A stretch of 64,000 bases of DNA from NCBI GenBank assembly GCA_964106645.2, contig OZ067042.1; one strand, given 5' to 3'. Position numbers and translations under genes: made by a program. Shown here one piece after another: positions 34,491 through 35,387 of this stretch; the stretch's first letter is position 1; every line of letters starts with the position of its first letter. Below the pieces are notes generated by a model. It ran no database searches, was not told where the DNA came from, and saw nothing but the letters and a program-made list of their open reading frames with translations. This stretch comes from Podarcis pityusensis (Eukaryota).

Positions 34491-35015
34491 AGGCAGTCTG
34501 GTTTGTTTATACACAACCATTTAGGCACATGGCTAAAAACAGAGGATAATCTAGAAAGTTCTTGAAATGCACAGAACATTTTTGCATGAAGCTGGTACAA
34601 CAGTCTGCATTTGGACTGAGAGTTTTCTACACCCAAACACCTTTCACATTTCCAAGAGAACTCAAGTGGATTTTGCTTCTCCTAGTAACAGTTTATGGCT
34701 CCTTAAGAAATTCTGGCTTTACTTTCAAAGAGTCAGAGGCTTAGGAGTAAACAGGGACTGAACCCTCCCTGCTCCCTGACCACATAAGCACTTTTCTCCC
34801 AGTGAGTTGTAGCAGTGCAGCACAACAAGGTAAAATGAGGAAGGGACCAGGGTAAACTTATCCCCCATGTTGTTGTAGAAAACAGGCACCCCACTTCCCA
34901 ATAGTCACTTTAGGCATAAATGAGGCAAATGCAGCAATACCTAGTGCAGTCACCTGTGAGGTATCAACCTAGCTAGGCAGGTGACCATCACCAAAAGGGC
35001 TCTCACCCCATTGTC

Positions 35016-35235
35016 TTTTTTTTAATGCTTTTTGAATTCAAAAAAAGCACACATTCAGAAAAAGAAAAATACATATTCCCACATGCTTAGTTTCTTTCCT
35101 TATACACAATTTCTATAACGGCTTCCCATCACTCCATCGTGGATCCTAAATGCTTTAATCATGTGTCACACATTTCATTATCAGTCCAAATCAATCTCCA
35201 TTATTTTATTTTCCTATAGTTTTCCATATTTCTGC
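35016..35235 (-). mobile_element. Short 5'-truncated retroposed insert (probably an L1 3' UTR)
   Basis: Poly-T at 35016-35023 (A-tail on -). Flanked by 20-bp direct repeats at 34996-35015 and 35236-35255. Composition resembles the L1 3' UTR at 61116-61408. Confidence 0.7.
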
Positions 35236-35246
35236 AGGGCTCTCAC

Positions 35247-35387
35247 CCTGTTGTCATAGACCTTCTTGAGGGCTTCGTAGCGGATCGATCCCTGGAAGAT
35301 GACTCCTTGGAAGGTGTTGCTTTTGTCACTGGCCACCAGCTCCACACAGACCATCTCACCTTCTCCTACAGTCATATCGCTGAACAC
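35247..35387 (-). CDS. KIAA0930: KIAA0930 exon 6 ([21 protein letters not shown]...[11 protein letters not shown])
   Basis: atttag| acceptor and |gtgaga donor. 141 nt, phase 0/0. Confidence 0.96.

Follow-up and report, generated by a model that had tools for sequence, protein, structure and literature searches.

The window (the whole stretch of 64,000 nucleotides analysed here, from Podarcis pityusensis contig OZ067042.1) contains nine exons of KIAA0930 that could be placed by tblastn, with the first 37 residues of the protein unmapped. KIAA0930 is the host gene of an insert located just inside intron 6, and the exon downstream of that intron (exon 7) is 100% identical to two lizard proteins; the tblastn exon map also bears out the exon 7 acceptor position given in an earlier note on this DNA. 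The exon upstream of the intron, which the same note called exon 6, is the fifth of the nine mapped exons, and the name fits if one coding exon lies further upstream. The position of intron 6 is conserved across other vertebrates. Coordinates of all features are collected in the table.

Table. Features at the KIAA0930 exon 6/intron 6 boundary, in window coordinates.
Feature	Coordinates	Strand	Remarks
KIAA0930 exon 6	35247..35387	-	141 nt, 47 codons, phase 0-0; tblastn plus AG/GT ends
Upstream TSD copy	35236..35255	-	last 9 exon nt, authentic donor (GT 35246-35245), intron +1 to +11
5'-truncated L1, 3' UTR only	35016..35235	-	sense to KIAA0930; starts about 4 nt past ORF2 stop of longer copies
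In-frame TAG met on exon extension	35214..35216	-
Position of the terminal AATAAA of the family, lost from the window copy	35024..35040	-	run X13 has six A here
A8 tail	35016..35023	-	insert 3' end
Downstream TSD copy	34996..35015	-	duplicate donor: last "exonic" base 35007, GT 35006-35005; mismatches 35010, 35009
KIAA0930 exon 7	33410..33604	-	acceptor at 33604

Several other observations concern the same region. Among the best 120 of 335 homologues, nine join exon 5 directly to exon 7 and two join exon 4 to exon 7, and annotated skipping of KIAA0930 exon 6 thus takes place independently of the insert. The start of exon 7 (33597-33607, minus strand) reads TAG/GTAAGC, a strong donor-like sequence directly after the acceptor (-9.4 kcal/mol) that resembles a recursive-splicing exon; the spliced exon 6-7 junction would itself read as a donor (-8.9 kcal/mol). 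At 33735, 23 extra bases are found in runs X13 and X15 and are absent from the window and from X3, representing a small indel that splits the relatives. Two intron 6 stretches (33800-33843 and 34160-34199) receive very high depth from many other loci and are high-copy repeat remnants. An Rfam search of 33300-37500 returned no RNA family, its two weak matches (E 0.12 and 0.98) both lying far below the gathering score.

Identity of the insert and its target-site duplication

The insert is 220 nt long with 30% GC, compared to 41% for the remainder of intron 6. Searching the genome with it yielded 11 matches, corresponding to its own locus and at least 10 other copies at 73-88% identity, and two of those other copies used as queries yielded at least 12 and at least 18 matches, mostly to the same set. 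These copies share their 3' end and differ at their 5' end, and the longer ones extend upstream into an open reading frame that bears a CX2CX8HX4C motif (seen in L009), which is the form found in most non-mammalian L1s (PMC5381506). Low GC and a terminal AATAAA are likewise typical of non-mammalian L1 3' UTRs (PMC5381506). The frame of the parent element matches 20 database proteins at 42-54% identity, the longest of about 1250 aa with endonuclease and reverse transcriptase domains; both activities of the parent are thus known from these relatives and not from a full-length parent in this genome. One such relative aligned to human L1 ORF2p over its full length (E 1e-174), whereas its match to R2 reached only E 7e-25. 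Pfam searches with four pieces of the parent open reading frame gave nothing above threshold, the best being a sub-threshold zf-RVT match (E 0.064). The retrotransposon origin proposed in the earlier note is therefore upheld, as both the dispersed copies and the LINE 3' similarity for which it had suggested looking were found and the longer copies reach the end of L1 ORF2. A processed pseudogene or SINE origin was discarded, since upstream of this part the longer copies carry L1 ORF2. Truncated LINEs of lizards are treated as background in PMC5389967.

The 5' ends of this L1 family show a pattern of their own. In three of 13 independent copies (window 35235, L002:1713 and L006:1500) the 5' ends cluster to within about 3 nt just past the ORF2 stop, for which a rough post-hoc chance is 0.004-0.016, and a predicted stem closes at this shared end in three of four longer copies (a count made with no shuffle control). 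Possibly, this marks a truncation hotspot just past the ORF2 stop. A short master element behind the three 3'-UTR-only copies was rejected, as placing them in one clade gave a p-AU of 0.022, for a group picked by 5' end but after the first tree had been viewed. Elsewhere in the family, the L006 copy (1300-1760), whose TSD measures 11 bp, lies nested within the end of ORF2 of a second, distinct L1-like element; L005 and L007, 15 kb apart with common flanks, are one insertion copied by local segmental duplication; and at L002:1340-1500 the tail has turned into about 160 nt of purine microsatellite that separate the element from its TSD.

On either side of the window insert lie direct repeats of 20 nt, 18 of which are identical (90%), at a spacing of 240 (repeat family D7), confirming the coordinates, length and spacing that had been reported for a 220-bp insert between 20-bp repeats. 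Each repeat consists of 9 nt corresponding to the exon 6 end followed by 11 nt of intron, so that the repeat does span the last 9 coding nucleotides plus the donor, as had been claimed. The repeats abut the L1 homology exactly at both ends. At the 5' joint of the insert there is microhomology of 2 nt, in that the last 2 nt (CT) of the upstream copy also match the L1 source, and the flank downstream of the insert is single-copy. Within the L1 family, 11-20-bp direct repeats were found for five of 11 copies (20 bp here, 11-16 bp in the four others), a survey in which junctions were set by hand and the remaining six copies, giving only 8-9-bp matches, were left uncounted.

The nick site on the nicked strand is TGTC/AT and not the TTTT/AA seen in mammals. 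As the TTTT/AA consensus is mammalian (PMC12934576), this site does not exclude an L1, and as four of the five clear TSDs of this family begin with T/GA, as the window copy does (nicked strand TC/A; loci L001, L002, L010 and L020), it is the usual one among these copies. A first nick located 9 nt into exon 6, as previously proposed, is thus a fair inference from the repeats. The L1 endonuclease would have nicked the template strand at this position, reverse transcription would have stopped after 220 nt, and a second nick at intron +11 would have left the sense strand with its exon and donor and the insert at +12. The sense strand of KIAA0930 is indeed uninterrupted through intron +11. The earlier note had described an insertion into a coding exon that was rescued by its own duplication; the intact upstream exon end and donor agree with this, but functionally the event is an intronic insertion at +12. 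With the sense strand continuous to the second nick, and a TSD that extends past +6 leaving the donor whole, no special rescue is needed, and we infer that retention of the upstream donor follows from TPRT geometry.

Strength and age of the duplicated donor

The duplicate donor, located 240 nt downstream of the authentic one as the earlier note had it, differs from it only at -4 and -3 and is identical from -2 to +11. Using duplex energy with the U1 5' end as a crude stand-in for a donor strength score, the duplicate reached -9.3 kcal/mol and the authentic donor -9.0 kcal/mol, both with five Watson-Crick and three wobble pairs, in comparison to -6.2 to -11.1 kcal/mol for six other KIAA0930 donors. 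By U1 match, the duplicate ranks first among the 87 GT sites in intron 6. The Arg at the junction is kept in 91 of 91 homologues showing it (among the best 120 of 335), placing the -3 change in the duplicate; the synonymous -4 change may have arisen in either of the two copies. At -3 of real donors, A is commoner than G, and some weakening of the duplicate by the -3 change is plausible, but it would be small. The earlier note stated that the two mismatches weaken the duplicate; a large effect is not supported by these energies or by a sequence from a relative.

That relative, organism F (run X13, record 7), is represented by a contig over 34890-35081 with two other letters and four gap letters. 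The contig includes the duplicate and the tail together with 66 nt of L1 sequence, the 3' joint being the only one seen in F. Here, -2 of the duplicate has changed from G to A (35008), moving towards consensus, and -3 to +6 is now the same as in the authentic KIAA0930 exon 8 donor. A change in this direction gives no sign of selection to disable the duplicate, and the sequence of the duplicate would not by itself silence it. We read the changes in the duplicate, two of 20 positions in the window and a third in F, as drift and not conservation.

The occurrence in F also bears on the age of the insertion. The window insert is 10.0-15.1% different from its five closest copies, with an end branch of 0.044, and the intron difference between the window and F is about 2.4% (28 letters over 1150 nt). 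The insertion in F, together with a copy divergence above the intron difference, indicates that the insertion is old, is common to the window species and organism F, and predates their split, we estimate by roughly a factor of three or four as an upper bound. Four of the 23 sequencing runs listed, none of which was recorded as RNA, were compared with the window. In one of these, from organism B (run X3), no cover was found at 34888-35050, which fits an empty site and dropped contigs equally. Searching for an empty site through read-through open reading frames found none among 119 new short proteins (from the best 120 of 188), all from more distant animals, and the 240-nt extension was present in none of 120 longer homologues (the best 120 of 335).

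Predicted use of the duplicate and alternative readings

Splicing from the duplicate would extend exon 6 by 240 nt, from 141 nt to 381 nt, and translation would continue for ten codons before a stop at nt 31 of the extension, the first of eight in-frame stops in the extended part. This TAG lies 207 nt before the new junction, with three more exons downstream, confirming the premature stop that had been foreseen for this isoform. An mRNA becomes a target of NMD when its stop precedes the last junction by more than 50-55 nt, and the duplicate-spliced mRNA is predicted to be removed by this pathway.

Our preferred reading, which we regard as probable, is that the TSD of a 3'-UTR-only L1 copied the exon 6 end together with its donor, and that the second donor is a latent, rarely used and unselected decoy. 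By its computed pairing the duplicate should in itself be usable as a donor, so that its silence would come from context, namely a 141-nt versus a 381-nt exon, an AU-rich extension of 30% GC and an in-frame stop ahead. If it leaked, the resulting mRNA would carry the premature stop and is predicted to be an NMD target. Exon definition should favour the first donor, with its 141-nt exon. When duplicated donors compete, the donor nearer the acceptor can be favoured, and appreciable use of the duplicate may occur given that it is the best U1 match in the intron, equals the real donor and lies nearer the acceptor. Two contig sets guessed to be RNA (X15 and X16) consisted of low-depth, mostly intronic pieces with no joints and no piece over either donor and are uninformative on expression; the exon 6 end was uncovered in all four runs compared.

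An unlikely alternative to the latent decoy is that splicing from the duplicate is appreciably frequent and perhaps regulated, and that the resulting poison (NMD) isoform tunes KIAA0930 in this lizard lineage. The equality of the two donors in U1 pairing, the stretch from -2 to +11 unchanged in the window since insertion, the shift of the F copy towards consensus and the placement of the stop relative to the junction would all suit such a role, as would the stress activation of latent donors in human cells (PMC3510495). However, with each copy diverged by about 4-7%, chance alone would leave a 13-nt stretch unchanged around half of the time, and the donor core differs between two close species, F being the one relative in which conservation around the duplicate could be viewed and differing at -2. 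Internal exons of 381 nt are also disfavoured. The fuller version of this scenario, in which a single L1 insertion, with no further mutation needed, made a ready alternative donor equal in strength to the first one, now giving a regulated or stress-induced KIAA0930 NMD isoform in this lizard lineage and differing in strength between species, we consider quite unlikely.

It is very unlikely that the duplicate instead serves a 21-nt poison micro-exon (35027-35007) whose AG would lie at the end of the U-rich tract of the L1. One AG in the extension does have a pyrimidine-rich stretch upstream, and the second codon of the 21-nt cassette is a stop, but consecutive A residues precede this AG, which makes for a poor acceptor.

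A highly improbable reading places the main effect of the insert in intronic polyadenylation, with loss of the terminal AATAAA having been selected. The element is sense to KIAA0930, and the hexamer is kept in seven of the nine aligned copies reaching the region and is absent from the window copy. Against this, L006 has lost it too, at this divergence a chance hit on the hexamer is expected roughly a quarter to a third of the time, and the insert retains one AATAAA (35210) and two ATTAAA. Selection on the lost AATAAA was rejected, and its absence from the window copy is read as decay. Finally, although the searches gave no empty site, it is extremely unlikely that the repeats match by chance or stem from an older local duplication later hit by an L1, as they adjoin both ends of the L1 homology exactly, their length and T/GA start fit the L1 family, and the chance of at least 18 matches in 20 is 1.6e-9 to 3.8e-8 per offset and still only 1e-6 to 4e-5 even over 1000 offsets.

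Relation to known systems

In the canine merle allele, a SINE in PMEL (PMC7349775) similarly sits at an exon-intron boundary with a 15-bp TSD that holds a splice site, creating competing sites. That insertion is antisense, affects an acceptor and is young, with alternative splicing and a phenotype shown, whereas the KIAA0930 L1 is sense, on the donor side, old and common to two species, and is known here from sequence alone. In mammalian cells, abundant intronic donors of consensus type follow an in-frame stop; they normally stay unused, and once stress activates them their products enter NMD (PMC3510495). The KIAA0930 duplicate resembles these latent 5' splice sites as an intronic consensus donor after an in-frame stop whose use would extend the exon and feed NMD; it differs in being a literal copy of the authentic donor made by one event, and the suppression of splicing (SOS) that acts on latent sites has been described in mammalian cells.

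LINEs lying within 50-100 bp of an exon are depleted in human and mouse, and the survivors are short and commoner near donors than near acceptors (PMC3088655). The KIAA0930 copy, a short truncated LINE less than 50 bp from an exon on the donor side, is similar to these fixed elements, but it is sense, in contrast to the antisense bias found in those two species. L1 insertions at MET exon 14 (PMC12934576) share truncated 3' ends of about 200-250 bp and non-canonical nick sites in or beside the exon; they differ in lying mid-exon or at the acceptor (none of four sites at the donor) and in causing exon skipping. Introners (PMC11282704) also obtain a splice site from a TSD, but they create a new intron, whereas the KIAA0930 insert joined an intron conserved in vertebrates, and an introner reading was discarded on the grounds that the insert lies inside this conserved-position intron. 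Within the literature searched, which left subscription journals mostly outside, no paper was found on a donor duplicated by a TSD and none on KIAA0930 intron 6.

The locus provides a natural experiment, in which near-identical donors 240 nt apart are placed in different contexts and a third variant occurs in a sister species. This donor pair answers no open question alone; it would serve to test in what way exon definition wins over donor proximity. If the second donor is in fact used in a regulated way, it would represent a one-step route from a transposon insertion to a poison isoform.
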